This document shows positions 9,180-64,000 of a DNA stretch of 64,000 nucleotides, one piece after another. The position numbers were made by a program, and so were the translations under genes. Numbering within the stretch: the stretch's first letter is position 1; each line of letters starts with the position of its first letter. The stretch is from Minisyncoccota bacterium. GTDB taxonomy: Bacteria > Patescibacteriota > Minisyncoccia > Phycocordibacterales > SBAW01. The stretch covers positions 1,451-65,450 of the forward strand of contig DASZWM010000007.1 of assembly GCA_035546615.1 (NCBI GenBank), given 5' to 3'. The notes beneath the pieces were generated by a model, which made no database searches, was not told where the DNA came from, and was given only the letters and a program-made list of their open reading frames with translations.

Positions 9180-9485
9180 GTTGCCGAAAAAACTTTTGTT
9201 TGTGCGGAGAGTTCGGGTATTTCGTGTTTCAACAGAAGAGGTAGCGACCCGCCGATGTGCCGCTACCCTGTTACTAATTATTTTACGCGAGTGTCGCGCT
9301 TTTTCCGTCTATAATATGCGAAGAAAAATGTGGATATCTTATTGCACTGCAACGGAATTTTGAAAATTTATTTTCAAAAAATAATCAGCTTAAAATGAGT
9401 TTGCTGTTTAAAATTCCATGAAAAAATATTCGGCTTACATACCCTTTTCTCGTCTTAAAAATTGTATAGGAGAGATATGTTGTAA

Positions 9486-12051: not shown

Positions 12052-14151
12052 TTACTGCCCCAGCAGATAGAGCTGCCTGACCTCCGCAGCCGGGAGCGCG
12101 CGGTTGTAGACGCGCACATCGTCGAGCTTGCCGTTGAAGGTATACATAGCCCCGCTTCCGTTTCCCATGCTGCCGATATATGTATTAAAAGAAGCGGGCG
12201 TACCGGGATCGGTGGTCTGCGCGGAGGAAGCATCGAGGGAGCCGTTGATGTATATTTTCTTTGTCGCCCCGTCGTAGGTAAAGACGACATGCGTCCATGT
12301 AGAAGTCGCTATCGTAGCGGCGGATACGATCTGGCTCAGCGAACTGTTCCAAATGCCTCCCGAGACCTTTCCTGCTTGTATGTACATATCTATGCCTTTG
12401 TACGTGCCGCAGCAGTCCCGGGCGTTGCTGTACACGTAGTTGTATAGATAGGTCTGAGGAGTATTGTCGTATATCCATGCGGAAATAGTAAATCGGCTCG
12501 GGGTCAGCGAATTGCTGCTGCCCACATTTATTCCGCCGGTATTCATCCCGCTAAAACTGAACCCCTGTCCCATCCTGCCTATCGTCTTGCGGCTCGAAGT
12601 GGCGTTGTTGGTACCGACTAAGTATCCATTAAAACCACTCCCCGAACGGTCGTACACCTTGTCGGTTACGTCCGGCCCGTCGAAGGTCCAGAGGCCGACC
12701 AGCCCGCTTGAGAGGCTGCTGTCGGAAGACAAGTCGGGTGAAGGCGTATTTATCTGTGCGGTACCCTGCCTATATAAGGCCGCTATTTCCGCCGCCGAGA
12801 GCGCGCGGTCGTAGATGCGCACATCGTCCATGAGGCCGCCGAAGAACGAGGCGGAAGGATTGATATTGGCGTCCTTGCCGATAAAGAGGACGCTCGGTGC
12901 TGTGAGCGACTGGGTCCCCCCGGTACCCGTGTTGTCAAGAACCCCGTTCACGTACACTGTCATGGCGCCGGTCGATTTGACGCGGGTCGCGGTTACGAGC
13001 ACCCAATTGCCTGTGTTAACATCGGCATTCGAGAATACGGTCGTATCAGAGTTACCGACGCCGAAAGCAAGTTTGCCGTTATAAACCGTCATGCCGAAGT
13101 CGTTCGTTACGCCCCCGACTTCGCCGTCTACTATCCCCTGCCCGCAGTACCATTGCCCTGCGCAGCCCGCGGTATTCTGCGTCGTCTTTATCCATGCGGA
13201 GAGCGTGAAGTCGTCCGATACGGTGCGATTGACGGGTATATAGCTGGTGCTCCCGTCGAACAAGAGCGCCTTGCCGTGCTTTCCGCTTGCCCAGGCCGGA
13301 AGCGTCGAGCCGGAGAGCGTCCCGTCGTTGCTATTGCCGCTTGAGTCCCCCGCAATAGTACCCGTACCCTCGTTGAAGTCCCACGAGCCGACGAGGCCGA
13401 CGTTGTTAGGCGCGCGCACCTGCGCCGCCCCGCCCCTGTACAGAGCGACGATTTCCGCATCCGACAACGCGCGATTGTAGAAACGGAAATCATCAATCGT
13501 CCCGACGGTAGGCTCGCCGCCCGAATACTTTCCCAATATCCAGGAAGACTTCGCAATGCTGGTGGTGTCTGTCTGGGCGCTTCCCAGTGACGCGCCATTC
13601 ACAAAAACGGACACATTCGAGCCGCTTCTCTTTGCAACAATGTTGTACCAAACGCCTGCCGCGGGGGTAAACGGCCAGCTGAGCGTATGAGGCCCGGAAG
13701 GCGTTCCCCGTATGTATAGCATCACCACATGCGCCGTATTATCGAACTCGATCAATACTCCGGCGGTTCCCGCATATCCGCCGTCAAATGTCGTCTGGTA
13801 GCGCGCGGGGAAGCCGTCGAACCTGATCCAATGAGAAATAGTAAAATCTCCCGTTCCTATCTGGAATGCGTCGCTGACCGGGATGCTTACGTAATTGTCG
13901 CTGTTCGTGAATGAAAGGCCCTTGCTGAACCTGCCCGTAACCCATGTTGGCAGCGTGGTGCCCGAGAGCGTGCCTATGTGGCCGTTCCCGCTCAAATCGC
14001 CCAGCTTAGTTCCCGAGGCGTCGTTGAAGCTCCAGTACGCTATGAGCCCTAAATTATTCGCGGGTTTGGCAAGCGCGGCGGCCTGCGCGGCGGCGGGCAG
14101 AAAAAATGCCGCGAATATGAAACATATCGCGATGCCGGGAAATACCCTCAT
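12052..14151 (-). CDS. Secreted protein with four tandem concanavalin-A-like lectin/glucanase (LamG-like, Laminin_G_3-type) domains
   Basis: Signal peptide MRVFPGIAICFIFAAFFLPAAAQA. Four ~170-aa repeats each contain WxFNExSGTxxxDxSGNxNxGTLSG ... DDxRxYNRALSxAEIxxLY. Confidence 0.8.
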   Translation of the reverse strand: MRVFPGIAICFIFAAFFLPAAAQAAALAKPANNLGLIAYWSFNDASGTKLGDLSGNGHIGTLSGTTLPTWVTGRFSKGLSFTNSDNYVSIPVSDAFQIGTGDFTISHWIRFDGFPARYQTTFDGGYAGTAGVLIEFDNTAHVVMLYIRGTPSGPHTLSWPFTPAAGVWYNIVAKRSGSNVSVFVNGASLGSAQTDTTSIAKSSWILGKYSGGEPTVGTIDDFRFYNRALSDAEIVALYRGGAAQVRAPNNVGLVGSWDFNEGTGTIAGDSSGNSNDGTLSGSTLPAWASGKHGKALLFDGSTSYIPVNRTVSDDFTLSAWIKTTQNTAGCAGQWYCGQGIVDGEVGGVTNDFGMTVYNGKLAFGVGNSDTTVFSNADVNTGNWVLVTATRVKSTGAMTVYVNGVLDNTGTGGTQSLTAPSVLFIGKDANINPSASFFGGLMDDVRIYDRALSAAEIAALYRQGTAQINTPSPDLSSDSSLSSGLVGLWTFDGPDVTDKVYDRSGSGFNGYLVGTNNATSSRKTIGRMGQGFSFSGMNTGGINVGSSNSLTPSRFTISAWIYDNTPQTYLYNYVYSNARDCCGTYKGIDMYIQAGKVSGGIWNSSLSQIVSAATIATSTWTHVVFTYDGATKKIYINGSLDASSAQTTDPGTPASFNTYIGSMGNGSGAMYTFNGKLDDVRVYNRALPAAEVRQLYLLGQ

Positions 14152-50475: not shown

Positions 50476-51588
50476 ATGCTATATGCTTGCAGTATGGATA
50501 ACCGCGCTCCGTTGATATACGTTTCCCCCTATTACGACCCCAAGGTGCCTTCGGGAGCTAACCGCCGGTTCGACGAGATATGCCGGCGATACAGCCGCGA
50601 CTACGGCGACCGCTTTACGCTCATTGTCGCCAAAGGAAAGGTCCCCCTATGGTGGAACGGCAAGAACCTGGTCGAAGTCGACTACAAGTTCGACCACCCC
50701 AGCAAATTCACCGCGGCGCGGCAGATAGCGAAAGTGCTCGACGCCTTGCCCCCGTCCATCGTCGTTATCGAGTCGGTCCCGGTCCCCTACCGCGCGCTCA
50801 GGCGCCACATGCAGGTCCAGGTAGTGTACGATTTCCGCTACTTCACCGGCGACAGCAAAAGCTTCCTCTACCGCCTCATATTTACGCCGTACCTTAAGTG
50901 GCAATGGGGCCGCTCGCAATTCCTCCTTACCTGCAGCGACTTTTCGGTGGCTGAAGCGCGCAAGTACCTGCGCTACGACCCGGCCCGCGTCATAAAGAGC
51001 TACTTCGGCATCGACGAGAAAGTGCTCGACCTGGCGAACACGCCCGCGCCCGCCAAGGACGTCGACATCATATACGTCGCCCATTTCGAGAAGCGCAAGA
51101 ATCACGAGCCGCTCATCCGCGCTATCGCGCGGCTTAATAAGGATTTGCGCGTGGTATTTAACGGCCGCGACAACGGCATGCAGGCGGAGCTCGAAGCCTT
51201 GTGCCGCGAGCTCGGGCTTACGAACGTTACCTTCAGCGGGGGCAAGTCTGACGCGGAGCTGTGGAACATGTATCGCAGGAGCCGCGTCTTCGCCTACCCT
51301 TCTTTGTACGAAGGCTTCGGCATCCCGCTTATCGAGGGTCTGGCGCTCGGCGTGCCGGTAGCCGTCGCGGACACGGAAGTGTTCCATGAGGTCGGTAGCG
51401 ATCTGGTATCGTATTTCGACGGCCGCGACCCAGAGGATATTGCCCGCGTACTTAAAGGAATTCTGGATAACCCGCAGGTGCCGTCTCCCGAGAAGGTCCG
51501 CGCGCACTTGGAAAAATTCTTCTGGGAGAATATCTACAAAAAGATGGTGGAGGATACGGAGGCCGAGGCCGGGCCGCTTTTGCGCTAA
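50476..51588 (+). CDS. GT4-family glycosyltransferase
   Basis: FEKRKNHEPLIRAIARL..VFAYPSLYEGFGIPLIEGLALGVPVAVADTEVFHEV. Confidence 0.8.
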   Translation: MLYACSMDNRAPLIYVSPYYDPKVPSGANRRFDEICRRYSRDYGDRFTLIVAKGKVPLWWNGKNLVEVDYKFDHPSKFTAARQIAKVLDALPPSIVVIESVPVPYRALRRHMQVQVVYDFRYFTGDSKSFLYRLIFTPYLKWQWGRSQFLLTCSDFSVAEARKYLRYDPARVIKSYFGIDEKVLDLANTPAPAKDVDIIYVAHFEKRKNHEPLIRAIARLNKDLRVVFNGRDNGMQAELEALCRELGLTNVTFSGGKSDAELWNMYRRSRVFAYPSLYEGFGIPLIEGLALGVPVAVADTEVFHEVGSDLVSYFDGRDPEDIARVLKGILDNPQVPSPEKVRAHLEKFFWENIYKKMVEDTEAEAGPLLR

Positions 51589-52298
51589 GGCACTATCTCG
51601 AATTCGTCGCCGGGCTGCGGCTTTTGCGGCGTGAGCGCGCGCTTTTGCATGCGGGCCCACAGCGCTCCGGCGGTACCCAGCGCCATGACAGCCGCCGCGC
51701 CCGCGCCCCACACCAGCAGGGGCGGAAGCTGCGCCGATCCGGCCGCGGCCGCAAGCTCTTCCGGTTCGGTATAGGAAAGCTCGCCCGGATTCGCTGCAGA
51801 ACCGGCCGCTGGCGTCTTCGCTTTTGCGGTGGAAGTTTTTGAAGCGGCCGGCTTTTTTGCGGCAGGCGCGGGCTTCGGCTTGGGTGCTGCGGTATACGAC
51901 ATGGAGTACTCAGTTTTCCCGGAGGCATTCACAAGGGCGAGCGTCTCCCCTTCGTTTGAAAGCGAGAACGAGCTCTTGAATACGCTGCGGGTCTCCCCGG
52001 GATGCTCGCTCAAGTAGGTCGTCGGATCTTCCGCGATTACCGCCGACGCCCCGGGCGAGAGCGTGGCGCTTCCGGCAGCCGCGGTCAGCTTGTGATTGAC
52101 GCCTCCTTCGAGGAACTTGTATTTTGAAATATCGACGCTGTCCTTCCCTTTGTTGGCTATCTCGACCCACTCGCGCCCGTCGTCGCTGCCCGGCAGGTCG
52201 TACTCGACATGCGTGATTTCAACGGCCGCAAAGGCGCTCGCAGGGAGCGCTAGAAATGCGAATAGAAGAAAAAGGCGGAGGCTAGTGTTTGCGCGCAT
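51585..52298 (-). CDS. Lamin-tail-domain (LTD) protein: signal peptide, LTD, Ala/Pro/Lys-rich linker, C-terminal TM helix
   Basis: AAVEITHVEYDLPGSDDGREWVEIANKGKDSVDISKYKF..GETLALVNASGK. C-terminal LLVWGAGAAAVMALGTAGALWA. Confidence 0.8.
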   Translation of the reverse strand: MRANTSLRLFLLFAFLALPASAFAAVEITHVEYDLPGSDDGREWVEIANKGKDSVDISKYKFLEGGVNHKLTAAAGSATLSPGASAVIAEDPTTYLSEHPGETRSVFKSSFSLSNEGETLALVNASGKTEYSMSYTAAPKPKPAPAAKKPAASKTSTAKAKTPAAGSAANPGELSYTEPEELAAAAGSAQLPPLLVWGAGAAAVMALGTAGALWARMQKRALTPQKPQPGDEFEIVP

Positions 52299-54237
52299 CG
52301 GGGTCGTCTGACCCGTAGTCGGCGTCCGGCGCGAGGTCGGGGTCGACGGAAAGCATAGACCGCAACACGTCTTCTGGCAACCCGGCCGGCTCCTGCGCGG
52401 GCGTCGCCTGCGGTTTTGGCTTCGGAAGCTCTTCTGCGGCGGCGGGAGCCACCTTCTTGAGAGCGTCTTTAAGAGCCGTACCGTATCCCTGGTCCTGGCG
52501 CGGCGGGGGTGCCGGAGGAGCGTCCGCCTTTCGCGCTACCACCTCGGCAAGCGCTTCCCGCAGGCTCTTGGCGCCGCTTAAAGGCGGGGTTTCAGGGACG
52601 GGCGGCGGAGTGGGGCGCGGGCGTTCAGCTCGCCTTTCGGGCTCGCGGCGAGGCTCGGGCGCCTTTGGCCGGGGCGGGCGGGGCGCTTCTTCGACGCGGG
52701 CCGCGGGTTCCGGAGCGGGAGCGGGCCTTTCAGCCGGCGGCGCAGGGCGTTCGGGAGCGCGCTCAGGAGCCGCTATCTCCACAAAAACGGGCGTTGGGGC
52801 CGGAGGCTGAGGTTTTGGCTCTGCCCTGGGCGCCGCCGGAGCAGGGCGCGGACGGGGCGCTGAAGATGCGGCAGGCTTGCGGTCCGGAACGAACTTCGGC
52901 TTCTGAAGCGGCTCCATTGGGTCCTCCTCGTGCCACTTGCGAATCGTTTCCTCGACTTCCGCGCGCGGCCGGCTGAACACCCGGCGGGAATTCTCGATGA
53001 CCTGGTCGACGTACTTCTGGGGCGGCGGGTCAAACGGCGGCAGGGTCGTGGCGGAGAAGGGCGTCGAGCCTACGCCGTCTATCATGAGCGTCAGGTATAT
53101 CTGCGCGAAGCCAAGGTTTACGAGGTCGGTCGCCTCGAACTGCGGGCTGAACACGGTCTCGAGCACCTCGGCGTCGAACGGCCCCACGCGGAAGGTCACG
53201 GTCGTGCCTACGTTGCCGAACACGGCGTCCCGCACCTCCTCCTCCATCTGTTCTATATATTGGTGCGCGATGATGAGGTTCAGCTTATATTTGCGGGCCT
53301 CCGAGAGGATATCGGCGAAGGATTGGTTGGAAAAGCTCTGGAATTCGTCCACGTAAAAGTAGAACTGCGGCAGGGTCGCCAGCACGTCGGCAGAAACATC
53401 GGCGCGCGACATCGCCGCCAGGTATATCTTCGTGACCAGCATGGAGCCGAGCAGCGTCGCGTTTACTTCCCCCACGCGGCCCTTGGAGAGGTTGATAATG
53501 AGTATCTTCTTGTCGTCCATCGCCTGCCGGAAGTCGAACGACGACTTCGCCTGCCCGACGATATTGCGAATGAGCGGGTTGCTGGTGAATTGCCCTATCT
53601 TGTTCTGAATAGCCGGTGTGGCCTCCTGCGTGTAGCGGTCGCTGTAGGCGGCGAACTCGTCCGCCCAGAAACTCTTCACGATTGGGTCGGTCACGTTGTC
53701 CACTACCTTCGCGCGGAACTTCTTGTTGACGAGCATCCGGTTGACGTCCAGGAGCGTCGAGCCCTCGTACTCCAGGAGGGCCAACAGGGTATTGGCGAGG
53801 ATGTACTCCATGCGGGCGCTCCACGCGTCCACCCATATCTTGCGGAAGGCTGAGAGCAGCCCGGACACCACGAGATGCCGCTTGTCGTAGCCCACGTCCT
53901 CCATAACGTTGAAGGCGATGGGGTGCTCCATGTCGAACGGCGCGAAGTACACCACGTCCTTGATGCGGTGCTCGGGCACGTACTCCATGATGCGGTCGGC
54001 CGTGCCGCCGTGCGGGTCGATAAAGGCCATCCCCTCGCCGTTGCGGATATCCTGTATCGCCATGTTCTCCAGCAGGGTCGATTTGCCCATACCGGTCTTG
54101 CCGATGATGTACATGTGGCGCACGCGGTCGCGGCGCTTTATCCCGAAAGCCTGGTCCTTGCCGCGGGAGTTCGTCTGGGCGAAATAGGTTATCTTCTGAT
54201 CGTCGTCAGCCATTGGATAAAGTATATCACTTGGCAA
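52282..54237 (-). CDS. TraD/VirD4/TrwB-like P-loop NTPase (type IV secretion coupling protein-like, soluble form) with Pro/Ala/Glu-rich C-terminal tail
   Basis: Walker A YIIGKTGMGKST, Walker B QFYFYVDEFQSF, LIIAHQ sensor motif. No N-terminal TM. The last ~180 aa are low-complexity PAPAPEP/APPAPP. Confidence 0.65.
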   Translation of the reverse strand: MPSDILYPMADDDQKITYFAQTNSRGKDQAFGIKRRDRVRHMYIIGKTGMGKSTLLENMAIQDIRNGEGMAFIDPHGGTADRIMEYVPEHRIKDVVYFAPFDMEHPIAFNVMEDVGYDKRHLVVSGLLSAFRKIWVDAWSARMEYILANTLLALLEYEGSTLLDVNRMLVNKKFRAKVVDNVTDPIVKSFWADEFAAYSDRYTQEATPAIQNKIGQFTSNPLIRNIVGQAKSSFDFRQAMDDKKILIINLSKGRVGEVNATLLGSMLVTKIYLAAMSRADVSADVLATLPQFYFYVDEFQSFSNQSFADILSEARKYKLNLIIAHQYIEQMEEEVRDAVFGNVGTTVTFRVGPFDAEVLETVFSPQFEATDLVNLGFAQIYLTLMIDGVGSTPFSATTLPPFDPPPQKYVDQVIENSRRVFSRPRAEVEETIRKWHEEDPMEPLQKPKFVPDRKPAASSAPRPRPAPAAPRAEPKPQPPAPTPVFVEIAAPERAPERPAPPAERPAPAPEPAARVEEAPRPPRPKAPEPRREPERRAERPRPTPPPVPETPPLSGAKSLREALAEVVARKADAPPAPPPRQDQGYGTALKDALKKVAPAAAEELPKPKPQATPAQEPAGLPEDVLRSMLSVDPDLAPDADYGSDDPDARKH

Positions 54238-55264
54238 GTTCGAAAGAGCCCGTCGTGAGTATCGACTCCGATATATCCGCCGGCAGGTCGGGCGCTATAA
54301 GGTCCGCTAGCACCGCTTTTGTAGTCGTTGCATTCGCAATCGAAGCTTCTTTGAATGTATTCACGCCTGTAAGGCTGAAACGGATTTTATCGCTTGAGAA
54401 CTCTATGCCGACGGCCAGCCCTCGCCGCACTTCGGGCTTCCACCCCTGATCGAAGATAAAGTTGCCGAGCGAGTAAAATATTGCCTTGTTTTTGTAGATC
54501 TCCACAGGCTCCACGATATGCGGATGCGCGCCGATAACGACATCGACTCCCGCATCTATGAACATATGCGCCGCATTGCGCTGCGCCTGCGTGGGCTCAT
54601 GCTGGTATTCTTCGCCCCAGTGCGCTACAAGCACTATGTGCGAACATTCCGGACGAATTCGCGCTATTTCCTCAAGCATCGAGGAGGGGTTCGGATCGTA
54701 CAACTGATGAAAGCCGACCAGGCATAGTGTCTTGCCGTTTACCTGAAGTGCGGCCGAAATATTCTCGTTGTTAAGCGGCGACCCAAAGAAAGAAATTCCC
54801 TGCCCGCTCAGATATTGAGTAGTCTGCGCATAGCCGGACTTTCCGAAGTCAAGCGCGTGGTTATTCGCCAGGGAAACCGCATCGAATCCGGCGTCCTTCA
54901 GCACAGCCGCGTACTTCGGGTCGAACGTGAAGCGCAAAACAGTCGAGCTTGCCTGCGATAGGGAAGGGTTTGTCGTAATAGAACCTTCTAAATTCCCCAC
55001 TCGCAGATCGTAGCCCTGAAACAATTCTCGAACGCCTGCAAAGAGCGCCTCGTCCCCCGCGGCTCGCGCATGCGTCGCCACCGTTCGGTCGAGCATGATG
55101 TCCCCCACGAAAAGAGCAGTGAAAGAAGGCTCGGGCAGCGATATATACGCAGTGCGGACTATCTGTACAAGCGCGTCATGCAGCCGCTCGGGCCATAACA
55201 CAGCGGCGGCGCCTAATATGACGAGTACCGTCAAAAAGCATCGGAGAAGCCATGCATTCTTCAT
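54227..55264 (-). CDS. CapA-family (PGA_cap) metallophosphoesterase-like protein with N-terminal signal anchor
   Basis: FVGDIMLDR..NLEGSIT..SLANNHALDFG..GAHPHIVEP..SLGNFIFDQ. Confidence 0.85.
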   Translation of the reverse strand: MKNAWLLRCFLTVLVILGAAAVLWPERLHDALVQIVRTAYISLPEPSFTALFVGDIMLDRTVATHARAAGDEALFAGVRELFQGYDLRVGNLEGSITTNPSLSQASSTVLRFTFDPKYAAVLKDAGFDAVSLANNHALDFGKSGYAQTTQYLSGQGISFFGSPLNNENISAALQVNGKTLCLVGFHQLYDPNPSSMLEEIARIRPECSHIVLVAHWGEEYQHEPTQAQRNAAHMFIDAGVDVVIGAHPHIVEPVEIYKNKAIFYSLGNFIFDQGWKPEVRRGLAVGIEFSSDKIRFSLTGVNTFKEASIANATTTKAVLADLIAPDLPADISESILTTGSFELAK

Positions 55265-56415
55265 TATTGATACTGAATGTATATCGGCGCGGGCGTCAGC
55301 TCAAGCACCTGCGGCGGGGTCAGCATCGTCGTGCCGTCCAACACGTCGTTCTTGTAGAACAGCTTGAAGCCGGTGAATTGCACGGGCTCGGGAGCGATAA
55401 CGTTGTTATATGTTCCCTGCTTCTTGGCCTGCCCGCCCCAGCCGTCCATATCCACCACCACCTGCACTTCGGGTGTGGGCTTGATGCGCTGGTAGCCCGT
55501 GAGCATATCGTGCGTGAAGCGGTGGATAACCAGGATTTTCGGCGGCAGGTCATATTGCCGTACCAGCGCGGAGAGATACTGTATCGCCCAGTTGATGTCG
55601 TCAGCATCAAGCGAACCGATAACTTTGCCTGGCGGCGTGCCGTTGTGCATTGCGAACTCGGGGTCCAGTCCCAGGTGCACGTTCGGGAGCTTCCAGAAAT
55701 TCTCCAGCATCGGCACCTCCGTCTGCACGTCGGACAACGCCACCTGAATATCGAGGAATACGACGCCGTCCACTTCCTTCGCGAGCGCGAGGGCCTGCTC
55801 CACTTGGCTGTCGGGCATGCGCGTACGGTATTTGCCGTCCTTGCCCGCGCTCCCCTGCGCCACGACCGCGATGTAGTGGATAGCGGGGATGACCGGCGTC
55901 GACGGGTCCGCAGTGCGCCACTGCGCCGCGGCGTTCTTCAGGCGGGTAACCATCTCCTCCGGCGGATACTGGCCGAGCACCCCCATGCCCTTTGCGTAAA
56001 AATTGCCGTAGTACGCGACGATGCGGTTGAACGGCAGGAGCGCGCGGCTGTCGCGCGGATATGCGGCCGAGACGGGCCAGGGCTTTTTAGCCACATGCAC
56101 CGAAGTGGTTGCGTTCGGAAGCGTTACGGTTGTCGTGCCCTGAAGGAACGCCGCGTACCACGGGCTCGAAGTCGCAACATGCGCGAGCGCGAGCAGCTTC
56201 AAGTTGTACGCGGTTGTATCAAGCGGCGGCGGAGGCGGCGGGCCCTTGGGTACGGCAGCCTGGGTCGAAGTCGCAGCGGTGCGCGAGTAGGACACCGACA
56301 TAAGCTCCGGAAGCGCGCCGTATGCCAAGACGAAAGCGGCGCCCGCGACAAGTGCGGCCGCGCCGATCATGACGAATGCGTTCTTAGTTGAGGGAGTTGA
56401 TGCCTTCTTGGTCAT
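55264..56415 (-). CDS. Hypothetical membrane-anchored/secreted protein (384 aa from ATG 56415)
   Basis: N-terminal TM VMIGAAALVAGAAFVLAY then a Pro-rich stretch. Possibly a TIM-barrel glycoside-hydrolase-like fold. No confident family. Confidence 0.5.
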   Translation of the reverse strand: MTKKASTPSTKNAFVMIGAAALVAGAAFVLAYGALPELMSVSYSRTAATSTQAAVPKGPPPPPPLDTTAYNLKLLALAHVATSSPWYAAFLQGTTTVTLPNATTSVHVAKKPWPVSAAYPRDSRALLPFNRIVAYYGNFYAKGMGVLGQYPPEEMVTRLKNAAAQWRTADPSTPVIPAIHYIAVVAQGSAGKDGKYRTRMPDSQVEQALALAKEVDGVVFLDIQVALSDVQTEVPMLENFWKLPNVHLGLDPEFAMHNGTPPGKVIGSLDADDINWAIQYLSALVRQYDLPPKILVIHRFTHDMLTGYQRIKPTPEVQVVVDMDGWGGQAKKQGTYNNVIAPEPVQFTGFKLFYKNDVLDGTTMLTPPQVLELTPAPIYIQYQ

Positions 56416-56659
56416 AGCGTCTGTCCTGCGGGTGCCAAGGCATCTCGCGCTCCTCCTCCGGCATATTCTCGACGAACGGATGGTGGACCGAGCGCTTGCC
56501 GCTGCGGGCAAGGGACTCTGCGCGCAGCACGAATCCGAGCAGGGCGATCGCGAGGCCGGAAAAAATGAGAATGGTCGTGCGCCATGAGCCGGGGATGCCG
56601 AGGTATGGCACCGCCAGTATCCAGACGCCAAGGGCTATGACCGTCATCTCTTTGGACAT
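56384..56659 (-). CDS. Small two-TM membrane protein (91 aa)
   Basis: MTVIALGVWILAVPYLGIPGSWRTTILIFSGLAIALLGFVL. Overlaps the downstream gene by ~30 nt. Confidence 0.35.
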   Translation of the reverse strand: MSKEMTVIALGVWILAVPYLGIPGSWRTTILIFSGLAIALLGFVLRAESLARSGKRSVHHPFVENMPEEEREMPWHPQDRRYDQEGINSLN

Positions 56660-56748
56660 GACCCGAGTGTATCACACGAGGCGTCACCCTGTTAACTCGC
56701 CGCCTTGCGGCGACTGTGCGGAGCACAGAGTTAACAGGGTTTCGGTCG

Positions 56749-57429
56749 CTACGCTCCCTCCACTATCACTACGAATTCGCCGCGCTGTTTCTGCGGATCG
56801 CCCATAAGGCGGGCCCGGACTTCGCTGGCCGAGCCGATTATGGACTCTTCATACATCTTGGTGAGCTCGCGAAAGATGCCGACGCGGCGCGCAGGCGGCA
56901 GGACCTTATTCAGCGCCTCAAGCGCCTTCATAATGCGATGCGGGGATTCGTAAAAAACGCTCGCGCGCTTGCTCTCGGCAATTTCCTTAAACAAAGTCTC
57001 GCGACCTTTCTTGAGAGGCAAGAAACCGTAGAAGGTGAATGACGCTGCGCGCAGGCCTGCGATAGAAAGTGCGGCGGCCAGCGCCGAAGCGCCCGGTATC
57101 GCTTCTATTGTGATATCCGCAATGCGCTCGCGAACAACCGAGACAAGTTCCAGCCCCGGATCTGACACGCCCGGCGTGCCGGCGTCGGAAACGAGCACGA
57201 GATGCTTGCCCTCCTCAAGCAGCTGGATTATTTTCTCAAATCCCTTGGCGCCGCTATTTGCGTGGAAGGCAACGGTAGGCGTATGAATGTCGTAGTGGCT
57301 GAGAAGCTTCTTCGTAACACGCGTATCCTCGCAGGCAATAACGTCCGCTTCCTTGAATACCTCAAGAGCCCGCAAGGTGATGTCCTTCAGGTTCCCGATA
57401 GGCGTGGCGACGACCGAAAGCTTTTGCAT
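56749..57429 (-). CDS. rsmI: 16S rRNA (cytidine1402-2'-O)-methyltransferase
   Basis: MQKLSVVATPIGNLKDITLRALEVFKEADVIACEDTRVTKKLL (tetrapyrrole-methylase fold). Confidence 0.9.
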   Translation of the reverse strand: MQKLSVVATPIGNLKDITLRALEVFKEADVIACEDTRVTKKLLSHYDIHTPTVAFHANSGAKGFEKIIQLLEEGKHLVLVSDAGTPGVSDPGLELVSVVRERIADITIEAIPGASALAAALSIAGLRAASFTFYGFLPLKKGRETLFKEIAESKRASVFYESPHRIMKALEALNKVLPPARRVGIFRELTKMYEESIIGSASEVRARLMGDPQKQRGEFVVIVEGA

Positions 57430-57485
57430 AACGTCTGTACCGTACCACAAAATATTGACTTTTTCAAGTAAGCCCAGTAGTATCC

Positions 57486-58375: not shown

Positions 58376-59668
58376 TTAATTGGTTTCAACCGCCTTCTCC
58401 CCCGCTTTGTAAATGTCTCCCGCGCCCATAGTAACCACTATATCGCCTTGTTTTGCCTCGTTTTTTATATAGTCCGTCACTTCGTCCAAAGATGCTGCCG
58501 CTCGCGCCGTCCTGCCCTCCTTTTCGATACGCTCGGCCAAGACAGCGCTTGATACGCTCGGATCAGGCTCTTCTCGTGCGGCAAATATGGGAGCCACGAC
58601 GACTTCATCGGCATCCATGAAGGCTTTCGCAAATTCATCCATGAATATCCTGGTGCGGCTGTAGAGATGCGGGTGGAACGCAACCAAGATGCGTTTGTCG
58701 GGGAATTGCTGCCGCACGCTCTTAAGAGTGGTTGCTATTTCGGTCGGATGATGTCCGTAATCGTCATATACCGCCGCTCCCCGTGCGGTCAGTCCCTTAT
58801 ATTCGAACCTGCGCCACGTTCCCGCAAAGTCTGCGAGCGCCTGCCTGGCGACTACAAGGTCGATCTTCAGGATATCTGCAACAGCAAGTACCGCGGCCGC
58901 GTTTATGCGATGGAGCGGCAGTACCTTGAGCGCGAGCGCCGGATCAAAATAGTTCCTATAATCGACGACCGTGCACGCGACACCTTCCACGACCGGACGC
59001 ACGGTAACACTTTCCGTATCGCATACCACGAATCCATCAGCAGGGATCTTTTGTATCAGCTCGCGGAACGCTGATTGTATGTCAGCCAGGTCTTTGTAGT
59101 AATCGAGATGGTCCGCTTCGATGTTGGTAATAACAAGGATATGCGGCGCGAAGTTGAGGAAATGCCGGCGATATTCGTCTGCTTCAACGACAAAATACTC
59201 GCCCTTGCCCGCCCTGAAGTTGCTTTTGGTCTTCGCGCGAAGCGAGCCGACTATGCCGGTCGGGTCCAGCCGTCCGGCTTCCGCGACATCTATCATCATC
59301 GCGGTCGTGGTCGTCTTGCCGTGGGCGCCCGAGATCGCAATAACCTTCTTGCCTTCGGTTACCTTGCCCAATGCCTCGAAATACGAAAGCTCCGGTATGC
59401 CGAGTTCGCGGGCGCGCAGGCGCTCGACATAGCCGTCGGAGCCTTCCAATATGGCGTCGCTGTATACGAGCAGATCCGCACCGGCAGGCACATGCGCCGC
59501 ATCGTGTCCTATAAATATTTCTATTCCTTTTGACCGCAGAAGGTCGGTCGTTGGCGAATCTCCTCTGTCGGAACCTGAGACGGATGCGCCTTCATGCAGG
59601 TACAATTGCGCCAAAGCGGAAAGCCCGATACCGCCGATGCCGACTATATATATCTTTTTTTCCTGCAT
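58376..59668 (-). CDS. murC: UDP-N-acetylmuramate--L-alanine ligase
   Basis: MQEKKIYIVGIGGIGLSALAQLY..ISGAHGKTTTTAMM. An alternative upstream ATG at 59719 would overlap murD by 47 nt. Confidence 0.92.
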   Translation of the reverse strand: MQEKKIYIVGIGGIGLSALAQLYLHEGASVSGSDRGDSPTTDLLRSKGIEIFIGHDAAHVPAGADLLVYSDAILEGSDGYVERLRARELGIPELSYFEALGKVTEGKKVIAISGAHGKTTTTAMMIDVAEAGRLDPTGIVGSLRAKTKSNFRAGKGEYFVVEADEYRRHFLNFAPHILVITNIEADHLDYYKDLADIQSAFRELIQKIPADGFVVCDTESVTVRPVVEGVACTVVDYRNYFDPALALKVLPLHRINAAAVLAVADILKIDLVVARQALADFAGTWRRFEYKGLTARGAAVYDDYGHHPTEIATTLKSVRQQFPDKRILVAFHPHLYSRTRIFMDEFAKAFMDADEVVVAPIFAAREEPDPSVSSAVLAERIEKEGRTARAAASLDEVTDYIKNEAKQGDIVVTMGAGDIYKAGEKAVETN

Positions 59669-59672
59669 AGGT

Positions 59673-61001
59673 TTATGTAACCTTCTCTGCGGCTTTATTG
59701 AACTGATCCCCGCGGTCATACTCGTTCTTGAACATGCCGAACGAGGCGAAAGCAGGGCTCATAAGCACAATGTCGCCATCCTCCGCGCCCTCTATGGCAA
59801 AGCCAACTGCTTCAGCCATAGTTCCATATATAGGACTGCCTGGTAACTCGCTTTTTACCCTCTCCGTACCGGTCCCCGCGAGCAGTAATACTTTCTTGCA
59901 GTACTTCGGGATCTCCGCAAGGAGCCCTTTCATTTCAAGGCCCTTATCCGCGCCGCCCATGATAAGCACGATGTTCTTTTTTGATTCATCTCCCAGCGCA
60001 TACAGGGCGGCAATAGTAGCCTCCGGTACCGTTGCCGTCGTGTCGTTGTAGATCTTCACTCCTTTTATTTCCCGCAGGAACTGAAGCCGCCCCGGAACCC
60101 CGTCGAACGACTCAATCGCCTTCTGTATAACATTCTCTTCAACTCCAAGCGCGCGGACAGCTGCGGCAGCAAGAGCCGCGTCATAGCGATTATGCTCGCC
60201 GGGAATCTTCAAACGCCATTCGGCGGGGATATCTTGCGTCCGCGCAATAACGGTACGAGCAAGGATCTGATCCTTAAACCCGTATTTTTTTGCATCCGGC
60301 ATTACTTGCTCGCCGAGAATAAGCACATCCTCCGGCTTTTGGAACAAAAAGATATTCGCCTTATCGGCGAAGTAGGCCGCCATATCGTTCTTGTAATAGT
60401 TCATATGGTCGGGCATGAAGGTGGTAAATACCGCCACATGGGGGCTTATCTTCGCCTCCCCGAGGCCCTGGCACTGCCACGAATCGAGTTCGAGTACGGC
60501 AGCGCTATCCGCTTGTACCTGCGGTAAAAGCGCGAGCGTCGAGACACCCTGCACGTTTCCGCCCAGAAGTACGCTCTTCCCTGCCTCCTTCAGGATATGG
60601 GCGATAAGATGCGTGGTTGTCGATTTACCGCGCGTGCCGGTAATGCCTACTGACGCGACACCCGAGAATTCCATAAAAAGGTCGGCGCTCATGCGCACGG
60701 GTACGCCGTTTTTCTTCGCCTCGGCGATAAACGGAGAATCGAGCGGCACGCCCGCCGCCTTGATAATAAGGTCGCGGTCTTTAAAATCTTCGAGACTGTG
60801 TCCGCCAAGGCGGAACGTTATGTTCGAAAACTGCTTCAGTTGCGCTAAAGAATCGGCAAGGTCCTCTTCTGATTTTAAATCGGTAACTACCAACTCCACC
60901 CCCTGTTCCGCTAGAAATCGCGCATCCCCCACCCCGCGGCCCAAAAGGCCGAGCCCCATGAGGGTTACCCGCTTGCCTTTGAAATAGTCTTTCCAATCCA
61001 T
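59673..61001 (-). CDS. murD: UDP-N-acetylmuramoylalanine--D-glutamate ligase
   Basis: MDWKDYFKGKRVTLMGLGLLGRG..GITGTRGKSTTTHLIAHIL. Confidence 0.93.
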   Translation of the reverse strand: MDWKDYFKGKRVTLMGLGLLGRGVGDARFLAEQGVELVVTDLKSEEDLADSLAQLKQFSNITFRLGGHSLEDFKDRDLIIKAAGVPLDSPFIAEAKKNGVPVRMSADLFMEFSGVASVGITGTRGKSTTTHLIAHILKEAGKSVLLGGNVQGVSTLALLPQVQADSAAVLELDSWQCQGLGEAKISPHVAVFTTFMPDHMNYYKNDMAAYFADKANIFLFQKPEDVLILGEQVMPDAKKYGFKDQILARTVIARTQDIPAEWRLKIPGEHNRYDAALAAAAVRALGVEENVIQKAIESFDGVPGRLQFLREIKGVKIYNDTTATVPEATIAALYALGDESKKNIVLIMGGADKGLEMKGLLAEIPKYCKKVLLLAGTGTERVKSELPGSPIYGTMAEAVGFAIEGAEDGDIVLMSPAFASFGMFKNEYDRGDQFNKAAEKVT

Positions 61002-61006
61002 ACTAT

Positions 61007-61093
61007 TGGTGCCCAGGAGAGGACTTGAACCTCCATTCCCTTGCGGGAACTACGACCTGAACGTAGCGCGTCTACCAATTTCGCCACCTGGGC
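61007..61093 (-). tRNA. tRNA-Leu (anticodon CAG), 87 nt with long variable arm and encoded CCA
   Basis: RC reads GCCCAGGTGGCGAAATTGGTAGACGCGCTACGTTCAGGTCGTAGTTCCCGCAAGGGAATGGAGGTTCAAGTCCTCTCCTGGGCACCA. Acceptor is 7 bp, anticodon loop TTCAGGT. Confidence 0.9.
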
Positions 61094-61745
61094 ATGACCT
61101 GATTATACGCAAGGAATTCCTGATCTTGAGGTACTTCCTGCGCAAGTGAGGCAGTGGTGTAGTGTAATACATGCCCTGTGCGAGCACAATCGCTTCTTTC
61201 TTCGCGTACCTCAGTTGTACGTACGACTTGCCCGTATACCCTCCGACCGAACCACGTATACGCAACAGTCGCGTTATCTTTGCGCGGAACCAATCGACGA
61301 AGATCGGGCTTGCCGAGGTAAATGATATGTAAAACCGATAACTGTTCTTAAAGACAGGATCGTAATAGGAATAACTGCATCCGTCCCCGTCGAAGTATCC
61401 TCGCGCAAAGTCCATAAAGTACACATCGGGCACCGCTACTGATTCAAGCGTTTTCGACTTTGCCGGCGTCAGGCCTATGCCCAGAAGGAACCGATACAAA
61501 AGCACATCGCCGAATTGGGTACAATACGCCATATCGCCGCTGCCCGAGTACTTTTTCGCGGTCTTTGTCTTGATACCCAGGCATTTTTTAAAAAGAGAGA
61601 TCTGTGCCTTGTCGGTCGAGGTCAGGCTGATATGCCGGCCGTCTTTTGATAAGCAGCCGTCGGCGGTTAGCAAGCCTACCGCATATGCAAAATCTGAAGA
61701 CCATCTGCGTTTTGCTTTGCCTACCGGCTTAGGACCCCTTTTCAT
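61050..61745 (-). CDS. LAGLIDADG-family homing endonuclease (two motifs, single-chain), free-standing. Its 3' end overlaps the 5' half of tRNA-Leu
   Basis: YAVGLLTADGCLS and FARGYFDGDGCSY. 231 aa. The last ~15 codons are encoded by tRNA sequence. Confidence 0.75.
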   Translation of the reverse strand: MKRGPKPVGKAKRRWSSDFAYAVGLLTADGCLSKDGRHISLTSTDKAQISLFKKCLGIKTKTAKKYSGSGDMAYCTQFGDVLLYRFLLGIGLTPAKSKTLESVAVPDVYFMDFARGYFDGDGCSYSYYDPVFKNSYRFYISFTSASPIFVDWFRAKITRLLRIRGSVGGYTGKSYVQLRYAKKEAIVLAQGMYYTTPLPHLRRKYLKIRNSLRIIRSCPGGEIGRRATFRS

Positions 61746-62043: not shown

Positions 62044-62655
62044 TCACGCACTGTCCAAGCGGACTTCCGCGGCCATAAGGCCCTTCGGACCGCTGCCGTA
62101 GCGCACAAGCACTGCCTGCCCGGTCTTGAGCTCGAGGAGCCCGAACCGGCGCAGCGTCTCCATGTGAACGAAGATGTCTCCGTCACCGCCGTCGCAGGTG
62201 AGAAAGCCGTAGCCGCGCACGCGGTTGAACCACTTCACCATTCCCCGCTTGGGGTCACCGACGTTCGAGATCTTGAAAGATCCCTGAATAACAGTAGAGC
62301 TGTCCATGCTGATAATGCGATGGGCGCTGAGACCCTTGTCGCGCTTCAGCACTTCAACGACGACCCGCGCGCCTTCGTAGGCGGTCTCGAAGCCGCAGCG
62401 CCGAAGGCACTCCAGGTGCAGCATCACGTCCGACAGGCCGTTATCAGACACGATAAAGCCGTAGCCCTTGCTTGGATTGAACCACTTTATGACGCCGGCG
62501 ATCTCAACGATACCCTCGAGTGGCGCGGCATCCGGCTCCTCCCGAGAGACAGGCGCCGGGTGCGTTCGCTCCCGCAGGGATTCCCCCGCCAGCGCTAGCG
62601 AACTGTGCGGACGCACGTCACGTTCCCGCTGGGCGCGGGCTGCATAAGCGACCAT
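62044..62655 (-). CDS. Cold-shock-domain protein with two tandem CSDs and an N-terminal ~50-aa extension
   Basis: [18 protein letters not shown] and [31 protein letters not shown]. Start ATG 62655 preceded by AAGGGAG. Confidence 0.85.
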
Positions 62656-62754
62656 GGCTACTACTCCCTTTTTTACAGAACAACCCCACCCGCCGTGAGG
62701 CGCTCTCACAATAGCATTATCAGAAAAAATATCTACAGGGCGCTTCGGCGCACA

Positions 62755-62786: not shown

Positions 62787-62926
62787 GGTGGTCACAAGTA
62801 TTTTTCCTGACGGAAAAATCTCGCGACCCCGGCTCGGCGCTTTTACCTTCGCTTCGCGAAACAAAAGTATGCCTGCGCCCCGCACAAACCACAAAATCTG
62901 CCGCAGGGCAGATTTTGAGTGTTTTG

Positions 62927-62999
62927 TGCGCGCTCTAGGGATCGAACCTAGGACCTTTCGAGTATCAGTCGAATGCTCTACCAACTGAGCTAAGCGCGC
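62927..62999 (-). tRNA. tRNA-Ile (anticodon GAT)
   Basis: RC reads GCGCGCTTAGCTCAGTTGGTAGAGCATTCGACTGATACTCGAAAGGTCCTAGGTTCGATCCCTAGAGCGCGCA. Cloverleaf is fully paired, anticodon loop CTGATAC. Confidence 0.92.
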
Positions 63000-63614
63000 A
63001 TGTGCACAGAGATACTAGCAAAAAACGGGCATATTTGCCATAGAAAGCAGAAACCTGGTCGCGCATGTGCGCGACCAGGCAATATTCAAACGAATGGGTG
63101 AGCACCTCCGCGGTGGTTACGGGAAAGTGAAAAGGGCCGAAAACATTTCGGGTTTGATCTTATTCTTGCGAAACATTCGCAACCTCCGCTTCTTCCGGTT
63201 GGAGTTAAGGGGATGTGAACAAAACCAAATACCCTCCTTTCTGCCCCCACCATACCACCGGGCGCGTAAAAGAAAAGGCATTTTGTGCACAGCAAAAGAC
63301 TCCCATGAGGGAGTCTTTTGCCTGAAACCCCGGCGCTTCGGTCGGGGTCCCGACTTTTTACGTCAGGATTGAATGTGATCACACCTTGCTAGCTCCAGAG
63401 AAATATTCTTTCTCTTGTTCCGTTTGTTACCTGTGTTCCGGCGCTGTACTCCAGCGTGTACTTGCAGGTATCGAGTAGCCGTACGTCAGCATGTCTTGCG
63501 GCATGCTCGGCCAATAACGAGTACGGTATAGGATCAGTACTATCATCCTCTATCTTTTGCAAAATAGAATCGCCATTACAGTTCTGTCCTCGTACGAGGG
63601 GCAGAACGTCAATC

Positions 63615-64000
63615 AATTTGAATCATTCCACGAGCAGCTTCCGCTACCCGTGCCTTGTTACGACTTACTCCCTGTCACCGAGCTTACCGTGAACCCACTT
63701 GCGTGGATCTTCGGGTGCTCCCGGCTCCCTTGAGTTGACGGGCGGTGAGTACAAGACTTGAGAACGTATTCACCGCGGTATAGCTGACCCGCGATTACTA
63801 GCGATTCCGGCTTCATGAGGTCGAGTTGCAGACCTCAATCCGAACTGAGCACTCGTTTCAAGATTTGCTCCGGGTTACCCCATTGCGTCTCGTTGTCGAG
63901 TGCATTGTATCATGCGTGCAGCCCAGGATATCAGAGGGACATGCTGATCTGGCGTCATCCTCACCTTCCTCCCCCGTGAGGGGGCAGTCTCGCCTGACAT
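63615..64000 (-). rRNA. rrs: 16S rRNA gene, 3' ~390 nt (E. coli ~1175 to 3' end). Continues beyond the window end
   Basis: RC contains GGAGGAAGGTG..., GAATCGCTAGTAATCGCGGGTCAGC, GTGAATACGTTC, CTTGTACTCACCGCCCGTC, AAGTCGTAACAAGG and helix 45 with GGAA loop (CACGGGUAGC-GGAA-GCUGCUCGUG). Confidence 0.9.

Follow-up and report, generated by a model that had tools for sequence, protein, structure and literature searches.

A mosaic locus around a conserved, anchorless coupling-protein-type ATPase in a Minisyncoccota bacterium

What is an ATPase of the type IV coupling protein (T4CP) class doing on the chromosome of an ultra-small (Paceibacteria/CPR) Minisyncoccota bacterium, and which of the genes packed around it belong with it? 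The question is raised by a stretch of 64,000 nt (positions 1,451 to 65,450 of contig DASZWM010000007.1, assembly GCA_035546615.1; hereafter the window), in which the ATPase gene lies beside genes encoding a surface protein with a lamin-tail domain (LTD), a CapA-like protein, and a hypothetical protein, an arrangement which the initial annotation had read as a four-gene operon with a plausible role in DNA uptake or surface DNA processing. Comparison with 80 related loci points, rather, to a mosaic locus around a conserved core, in which a small membrane protein (TM91), the ATPase, and the LTD protein would constitute a membrane-recruited, anchorless coupling-protein module. The probability of this reading is roughly 0.55, with most of the weight on its descriptive part. 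What is added here is a core T4CP ATPase of the Paceibacteria which lacks a membrane anchor and has conserved membrane and surface neighbors of its own.

The ATPase gene is one of five tightly packed, co-directional genes on the minus strand at positions 51585-56659, the products of which (TM, transmembrane; ORF, open reading frame; HMM, hidden Markov model) are as follows.

56384-56659, minus strand: TM91, 91 aa, a two-TM hairpin protein (ORF, hydropathy, and family HMM)
55264-56415, minus strand: Hyp383, 383 aa, read from an internal ATG of a 455-aa ORF
54227-55264, minus strand: CapA-like protein (PGA_cap), 345 aa (Pfam)
52282-54213 (ATG) or 52282-54237 (TTG), minus strand: ATPase, 643 or 651 aa
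52927-54213, minus strand: nucleotide-binding module of the ATPase, residues 1-429, of T4CP type
52282-52926, minus strand: C-terminal tail of the ATPase, a Pro/Ala-rich linker with three amphipathic motifs and an acidic end
51585-52298, minus strand: LTD surface protein, 237 aa (Pfam LTD)

The four overlapping or abutting genes described between 56415 and 51585 are genuine ORFs, but the unit begins further upstream, with TM91. The domains assigned to their products were recovered (Pfam LTD, TrwB_AAD_bind plus TraG-D_C, and PGA_cap), and the 383-aa protein harbors none. The junction sequence bears out the 17-nt overlap between the ATPase and LTD genes, the ATG of the latter being situated 17 nt inside the ATPase frame, within ...CCCGATGCGCGCAAACACTAG. 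An 11-nt overlap between the CapA and ATPase genes, in contrast, would require the TTG at 54237, whereas an identical 643-aa NCBI protein (P0001) and all homologs begin at the ATG at 54213 (MADDDQKITYF), sharing the N-terminal start MxxDxxKITYF; the ATPase is therefore taken to start at this ATG, and the two genes are thus separated by a 13-nt gap. The Hyp383 and CapA genes meet at a TAATG junction, with one base in common, while the 3′ end of TM91 overlaps Hyp383 by 32 nt.

The class of the ATPase is indicated by its sequence profiles. Among Pfam families, TrwB_AAD_bind (PF10412; 8.9e-11, residues 35-351) and TraG-D_C (PF12696; 1.9e-5) are matched above the cutoff and T4SS-DNA_transf (PF02534) is matched at 9.7e-4, while DUF87 (8.4e-4) falls under the cutoff and covers the P-loop only. 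The NCBIfam matches are all subthreshold and far under every equivalog cutoff (39 versus 366 bits and similar); they comprise SXT TraD, VirD4-like CD1115 (residues 35-352), and TOL TraD, the remainder being P-loop stretches of other families, including VirB4 models at 5e-4 to 9e-3. When a profile built from 25 diverse homologs, down to 44% identity, was compared with all PDB sequences, TrwB (1.5e-7) and DotL/IcmO (5.2e-7) were the only significant relatives of solved structure; HerA reached merely 0.048 to 0.1, and no FtsK or TrwK/VirB4 chain was found at an E value of ≤1. The alignment to TrwB spans Walker A (GKTGMGKST, 54076-54102) together with the region from Walker B (YVDEFQ, 53338-53355) to the T4CP “RK...Q” motif (ARKYKLNLIIAHQ, 53260-53298), and the residues of all three motifs are invariant in a diverse alignment of the family. 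The protein begins approximately 30 residues ahead of Walker A and is devoid of hydrophobic segments (the highest Kyte-Doolittle score of any 19-residue stretch is 1.37, and none reaches 1.6). By these profiles and motifs the ATPase is classified as a type IV coupling protein of the VirD4/TrwB/TraD class, within a subclass that lacks the TM domain. The initial annotation was therefore correct in calling it TraD/VirD4-like, HMM classification yielding a T4CP and neither an FtsK nor a HerA protein, and in describing it as soluble with a long Pro/Ala-rich tail.

This tail accounts for the last 213 residues, of which 26% are Pro and 18% Ala. Its three amphipathic motifs, SLREALAEV (52540-52566), ALKDALKKV (52450-52476), and, near the C-terminal end, LPEDVLRSMLSVD (52342-52380), are kept among relatives, while the linker varies in length and sequence. 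TraD has a comparable C-terminal extension with recognition motifs. Between the Walker motifs, residues 112 to 233 are predicted to be entirely helical, which suggests an all-alpha domain at this position; the AlphaFold2 (AF2) model of the ATPase domain, generated from 52 homologs that were 83 to 93% identical, is itself unreliable (pLDDT of 48.5) and was not used for fold searches.

Two other assignments were considered and set aside. A PADLOC scan gave generic P-loop similarity alone (mad8, 2.1e-13; HerA, 2.7e-7) and no match for the four neighboring genes, and the context is one of housekeeping genes, so that an anti-phage defense system was rejected. That the ATPase substitutes for FtsK is deemed unlikely, given the lack of FtsK similarity in the PDB profile search.

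Among the sequenced relatives, the ATPase stands out for its conservation. The 80 loci compared (L001 to L080) are those of the GTDB species representatives with the best ATPase matches, and their gene order was established by six-frame searches with family HMMs, 62 loci being informative upstream of the ATPase gene and 73 downstream. Across the 80 species the ATPase is 72 to 87% identical (median, 75%), while in the same loci RsmI is 62%, MurD 56%, MurC 48%, and TM91 46% identical and the LTD protein has a median identity of 36%. Judged by these identities, no gene of the neighborhood is under stronger constraint than that of the ATPase, a within-locus comparison which holds although ATPase similarity was the basis on which the loci were chosen, and the ATPase gene appears to be among the most conserved genes of the Paceibacteria. 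The wider family is large: close relatives of the ATPase domain number at least 8,000, the best 120 of which are all at least 83% identical, and 5,925 clusters at 50% identity were obtained at an E value of <1e-30. The protein is 100% identical to one labeled Candidatus Paceibacterota by NCBI. Many of the L001 to L080 records carry the title “uncultured Candidatus Saccharibacteria bacterium,” and these titles look unreliable; gene order and the 72 to 87% identity group the loci so titled with genomes of the Adlerbacteria, Kaiserbacteria, and Nomurabacteria type.

The same searches indicate which neighbors accompany the ATPase. Upstream and on the same strand, TM91 is present in 59 of the 62 informative loci, as opposed to 21 for DUF4015, 10 for Hyp383, and a single one for CapA (2 of the 80 by tblastn); in 28 of the 59 loci with TM91, none of DUF4015, Hyp383, or CapA stands between it and the ATPase. 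Directly downstream and on the same strand, an LTD-family gene is found in 55 of 73 loci, so the association of ATPase and LTD protein that had been noted from a single sequence has been kept in evolution. As far as gene order across these loci indicates, the conserved unit is composed of TM91, the ATPase, and the LTD protein. The complete order Hyp383-CapA-ATPase-LTD is confined to the closest relatives (L005, L087, L088, and probably L011); the four genes, for which co-occurrence in related genomes had been proposed as a check, are thus syntenic in L005, L087, and L088 but do not form a unit beyond them, CapA and Hyp383 being located upstream of the ATPase in only 1 and 10 of 62 loci, respectively.

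What lies between TM91 and the ATPase is best described as a variable slot, which is occupied by a putative glycosyl hydrolase (DUF4015), by Hyp383, or by nothing, DUF4015 and Hyp383 never occurring together and hence being mutually exclusive. Even in L087 and L088, which are 90 to 93% identical, CapA is split from the ATPase, by a YkuD/PBP5-type gene in the former and a 187-aa ORF in the latter. The genes found in the slot (DUF4015, PGA_cap, and YkuD/PBP5) specify extracytoplasmic wall or envelope enzymes, which is consistent with the mur and glycan genes that flank it. CapA itself matches PGA_cap over its full length (1.9e-62) and possesses an N-terminal hydrophobic anchor, like other members of that family; unlike them it has no CapB/CapC-type gene adjoining, the nearby genes of the Mur-ligase fold being MurC and MurD, and the unrelated ATPase adjoins it in a few close relatives only. 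The association with CapA, which had seemed unusual, is best explained by clade-specific insertion of envelope enzymes into the slot, and from their distribution Hyp383 and CapA appear to be clade-specific envelope passengers outside the conserved module. In L043 (positions 2176-5964) the slot holds a 1,262-aa fused protein of the type I/IIG-like restriction-modification kind (N6_Mtase, Eco57I, and Methylase_S), from which it follows that the slot also takes mobile defense genes.

Hyp383 comprises an N-terminal anchor (residues 13-44; 56284-56379), the motif LPELMSVSYS, a Pro linker, and an extracytoplasmic domain of approximately 320 aa. Searches of Pfam, NCBIfam, and PADLOC, a PDB profile search, and per-member Pfam scans returned no match, while the homolog search placed it in a large, Paceibacteria-only family of unnamed proteins lacking a Pfam domain. 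Its likeness to the DUF4015 family in an hhalign comparison is confined to the N-terminal anchor. The two proteins, which are otherwise unrelated, both carry such an anchor followed by “LP.L.SVSYS” (DUF4015, e.g., L007, 4671-5978), a pattern that may represent a common sorting or processing signal in the Paceibacteria.

The two proteins that do accompany the ATPase are both membrane proteins. The helices of TM91 (approximately 56525-56644) are joined by an “LG.P.SW” turn and followed by a cytoplasmic tail with a conserved PFVEN (56465-56479); the protein has no Pfam match, and weak matches to SPW repeats were obtained for 13 of 35 members. We regard it as a candidate membrane anchor for the ATPase. 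The LTD protein, as had been surmised, is membrane anchored: it has a signal peptide (52227-52298), the lamin-tail domain at residues 20-135 (Pfam 3.8e-14, 53.4 bits against a cutoff of 34.3, profile positions 2-107 of 109), a Pro/Ala/Lys linker, a single C-terminal TM helix (51654-51719), and, on the cytoplasmic side, a tail of 22 aa with DEFEIVP (51588-51608) at its end. Its relatives, which score up to 5e-25, retain the C-terminal helix; most of them are longer and combine the LTD with PKD domains. The C-terminal pattern [DE][FY][DETL][ILV], typically seen as DEFEIE, was found in 22 of 42 called LTD-family members; 23 of 974 locus ORFs end in this way, 22 of which belong to the LTD family, and within the window the LTD protein is the sole ORF to do so. 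A cytoplasmic end motif that is specific to the family implies a cytoplasmic partner. Covariation of this motif with variants of the ATPase tail merely tracks clades and was discarded as uninformative. In one clade (L060, L062, L064, L068, L073, L074, and L075), the LTD/PKD proteins have no cytoplasmic tail and end in “[KR]SPW[TA]LGF...” and a terminal hydrophobic helix, which looks like a C-terminal sorting signal.

The trio is embedded in a wider, commonly preserved order, murD-murC-rsmI-TM91-[slot]-ATPase-LTD-epimerase/glycosyltransferase (GT), in which rsmI (57 of 80 loci; murC, 48 of 80) marks an ancestral block extending from murD to the LTD gene. In the window, the five-gene unit is accordingly flanked upstream by rsmI, at a distance of 89 nt from TM91, and downstream by a convergent GT4 gene. 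The neighboring features are as follows.

56749-57450, minus strand: rsmI (TP_methylase, Pfam 4e-33), the conserved upstream neighbor
56666-56695, minus strand: sigma-70-like promoter match from a consensus scan, TTAACA-18-TACACT with TG, directly upstream of TM91
58376-59719 and 59673-61001: Mur ligases (MurC, MurD), with the N-terminal domains of both confirmed

The sigma-70-like match possibly marks the start of a transcript running from TM91 to the LTD gene; the evidence is weak, the scan of the region giving 7 sites against 4.1 ± 1.8 expected and the promoter and terminator scan as a whole being near background.

How such a module might function can be proposed by analogy with known coupling proteins. 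A review (PMC7434980) describes T4CPs without a TM domain that operate together with adjacent small membrane proteins, such as TraJ with TraI of pIP501, the latter being the presumed source of the membrane anchor, and TM91, encoded upstream of the ATPase in 59 of 62 loci, would by its gene position occupy the place of TraI. With this precedent, the ATPase may be recruited to the membrane by TM91, the LTD protein, or both; once there, it would oligomerize, hydrolyze nucleoside triphosphates, and act as a coupling or translocation motor, its tail motifs capturing cargo or a partner of the machinery, while the LTD/PKD protein, by adhesion or ligand binding, would represent its arm at the cell surface. 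The parallel has its bounds: the ATPase, unlike TraJ, lacks a surrounding tra operon, and its LTD/PKD membrane neighbor has no counterpart in pIP501. TrwB (R388), VirD4, and DotL share the nucleotide-binding domain (NBD) family, their Walker A, Walker B, and RK...Q motifs aligning with those of the ATPase; the ATPase differs from them in lacking an N-terminal TM domain, in having no VirB4-, relaxase-, or oriT-type gene recognized within the 64 kb, and in being encoded by a chromosomal core gene with 72 to 87% identity across a class, not by a gene of a mobile element. PrgB-type adhesins of Gram-positive type IV secretion systems (T4SSs) likewise represent surface proteins with Ig-like domains beside a coupling protein, yet the LTD protein is not related to PrgB in sequence, and its anchor is a C-terminal TM helix instead of an LPXTG motif; Quiñonero-Coronel et al. 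(2025; PMC12102498) report no PrgB-like adhesin in the Patescibacteria.

The absence of secretion genes nearby, already remarked on in the initial annotation, was confirmed: no VirB4, VirB6, pilin, relaxase, integrase, or competence gene was recognized among the approximately 45 ORFs of the window that were scanned for domain families, and no T4SS or relaxase gene within ±6 kb of the 80 related loci (family clustering and a Pfam sample). The window ATPase gene is one of the orphan T4CP homologs of PMC12102498, in which 5,713 VirD4-type homologs are reported from 2,918 Patescibacteria genomes, only 148 of them near virB4, with mostly one to four matches per genome among the supplement entries covered here; the study reports counts only and states that exaptation of the orphan homologs cannot be ruled out. 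At keyword level, its main text contains no TM91-ATPase-LTD/PKD arrangement, envelope enzyme slot, or tail motifs, and “lamin” has 0 occurrences. The literature joining “Candidate Phyla Radiation” with “lamin tail domain” yielded nothing beyond unrelated CRISPR-Cas work.

A sister form of the ATPase, 45 to 58% identical, occurs in other Patescibacteria, where it is either fused to DUF8128 or placed after a separate DUF8128 protein. In the first layout, the ATPase is joined at its N terminus to a TM helix and a domain of approximately 350 residues (DUF8128); in the second, it lies right after a separate 410- to 500-aa protein composed of a TM helix and DUF8128, in the order secD-secF-sigma factor-DUF8128-ATPase. 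The predicted fold of DUF8128 is that of the VirB4 N-terminal domain, and on this prediction the sister forms unite an N-terminal domain of VirB4 type and an NBD of T4CP type, which would tie the orphan ATPases structurally to T4SS inner membrane complexes. The main text of PMC12102498 was found to contain no description of this partner, DUF8128 not being among the keywords searched. Aside from the related NBD, the two forms are alike in their N-terminal hairpin and in a disordered tail with an “SLxEAL”-type motif; the sister form differs in its DUF8128 partner and secD-secF-sigma factor context, in lacking the terminal LPEDVLRSML tail motif, and in having no TM91 or LTD neighbor. Conversely, the window and the 80 loci of the solo form are all without a DUF8128 gene. 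The solo and DUF8128-linked ATPases represent either paralogous or orthologous forms.

Several observations weigh against the existence of a functional module. Overlaps are common in this compact genome (47 nt are shared by murD and murC, and 4 nt by the LTD gene with the GT4 gene that converges on it), and gene overlap is therefore weak evidence for functional coupling. Since the 80 loci are all best ATPase matches, the conservation figures describe one clade; within it, 18 of 73 loci have no LTD-family gene after the ATPase, which there remains more than 72% identical. TM91 is always located directly after rsmI and may belong with that gene rather than with the ATPase, and an attempt to identify it as VirB3/PrgI was abandoned, just 2 of 35 members giving a match (E value of 0.056). 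In a Kaiserbacteria-like clade, the LTD protein stops at its TM helix, without a cytoplasmic tail, so that contact mediated by the tail cannot be universal. Given the poor AF2 model, a hexamer-compatible fold and the all-alpha domain are both putative, and the T4CP homolog of Southlakia is, according to PMC12102498, not essential.

Several of these points are what would be expected if gene order had simply been inherited, the ATPase acting alone or with a distally encoded Patescibacteria T4SS (VirB4/TrsD/VirB3/VirB6/pilins) while TM91 and the LTD gene are mere neighbors within a compact block of housekeeping genes that rearranges slowly (murD-murC-rsmI through to the glycan cluster). This explanation is a possible one, to be taken seriously but less probable than a module. 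The whole neighborhood is syntenic, with rsmI in 57 of 80 loci, murC in 48 of 80, and epimerase/GT genes downstream; unrelated genes overlap as well; the LTD protein evolves fast (median identity of 36%, versus 75% for the ATPase) and its gene is missing from 18 of 73 loci; and T4CP genes are often far from virB4, as reported in PMC12102498. What speaks for more than inheritance is that TM91 (59 of 62 loci) and the LTD gene (55 of 73) persist, although genes come and go in the slot that separates TM91 from the ATPase, that both are absent from the DUF8128-linked ATPases, that the LTD family has its own conserved cytoplasmic end motif, and that a T4CP without an anchor needs a membrane recruiter (PMC7434980). 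It is in turn unlikely that TM91, the ATPase, and the LTD/PKD protein form a self-contained, minimal trans-envelope device peculiar to the Paceibacteria, a “split” coupling protein in which anchor and surface receptor are separate polypeptides and which, with no VirB4 channel, would carry a macromolecule from the cell to its host or environment or in the opposite direction. Under the same unlikely proposal, DNA or nucleotides, for example, could be the cargo, in keeping with the postulate that the Patescibacteria obtain nucleotides independently of ComEC, and the DUF8128 fusions would represent an unrecognized hybrid lineage of VirB4 N-terminal domain and VirD4 NBD. Were this true, the hybrid lineage would bear on the divergence of the two T4SS ATPases, and the trio would be of greater interest if shown to be an autonomous machine.

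The role originally put forward, a four-gene machine for DNA uptake or surface DNA processing whose LTD binds extracellular DNA while the TraD-like motor pulls it inward, now seems quite improbable. LTDs do occur in some secreted nucleases and are suspected DNA binders, and synteny of all four genes is seen in the closest relatives; in conjugation, DNA is the substrate of T4CP-family ATPases (PMC7434980), and ComEC is dispensable for the growth of Southlakia, another route of nucleotide acquisition being postulated for the Patescibacteria (PMC12102498 and PMC12857230). The module itself offers no direct support, however: no nuclease domain and no polytopic channel protein (ComEC/VirB6-like) was recognized in the module or among the scanned ORFs of the window, and the search of the 64 kb for com genes, suggested as a check, found none. 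The LTD protein differs from LTD-bearing secreted nucleases in having no nuclease or other catalytic domain; CapA and Hyp383 are upstream of the ATPase in just 1 and 10 of 62 loci, with other genes splitting CapA from the ATPase in close relatives; and the slot genes are envelope enzymes that match the flanking mur and glycan genes. Those same enzymes, the conserved location with murD-murC-rsmI on one side and a large glycan cluster on the other, and a conservation so high as to suggest a core function might be taken to mean that the ATPase is a housekeeping motor of the cell envelope or of division, for example in chromosome segregation as a stand-in for FtsK or in the export or assembly of an envelope polymer. 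Such a role is very unlikely, since sequence profiles group the ATPase with T4CPs and not with FtsK/SpoIIIE, the related ATPase of other Patescibacteria has a different context (secD-secF-sigma factor-DUF8128), and no T4CP is known to export polysaccharide. Decay of an integrated conjugative element could leave a lone T4CP gene behind, but such an origin is effectively refuted: neither an integrase nor a relaxase gene nor bounding repeats are present, base composition is uniform with the surroundings except in the Pro-rich tail region, and the gene occupies the same chromosomal position in 80 species with 72 to 87% identity and intact catalytic motifs, from which strong purifying selection on a core gene follows.

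The interest of the locus lies in the fact that much of bacterial diversity belongs to the Patescibacteria, most of whose conserved genes lack a known function. A T4CP ATPase whose conservation exceeds that of the Mur ligases and whose gene stands apart from any secretion system suggests a core process which has yet to be described, for which candidate partners can now be named: a two-TM hairpin protein and an LTD/PKD surface protein with a cytoplasmic end motif, in addition to the three motifs of the ATPase tail. The removal of CapA and the hypothetical gene from the module also disposes of a misleading lead.

The remainder of the window encodes SecA, GatB, Obg, MurB, MurC, MurD, a cold-shock-domain protein, and the 3′ end of the 16S rRNA, along with a 30-kb glycan cluster (Wzy_C, a Wzt-type ABC transporter, GT2, GT4, GT11, and GT15 glycosyltransferases, methyltransferases, epimerases, and UDP-sugar dehydrogenases). 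At one end, an ORF resembling LAGLIDADG_3 (61050-61745; 1e-7) abuts or overlaps tRNA-Leu(CAG) (61007-61093), and tRNA-Ile(GAT) comes after the 3′ end of the 16S rRNA gene (63616-64000; region 62926-64000), with no 23S rRNA gene within 2.5 kb and a cold-shock-domain gene (62044-62709) nearby; the rRNA genes appear to be unlinked. A 699-aa product of the minus strand (12052-14151) carries three Laminin_G_3/concanavalin-like lectin domains (3.3e-74) and is probably a surface protein. At the other end, a stop-free minus-strand frame of at least 3,102 codons (3-9308), which continues beyond the left edge of the window, contains six LVIVD repeats (Pfam 1.3e-49), and this giant frame accounts for the plus-strand GC skew of 0.15 to 0.22 and for the lack of listed ORFs at positions 1-9000.

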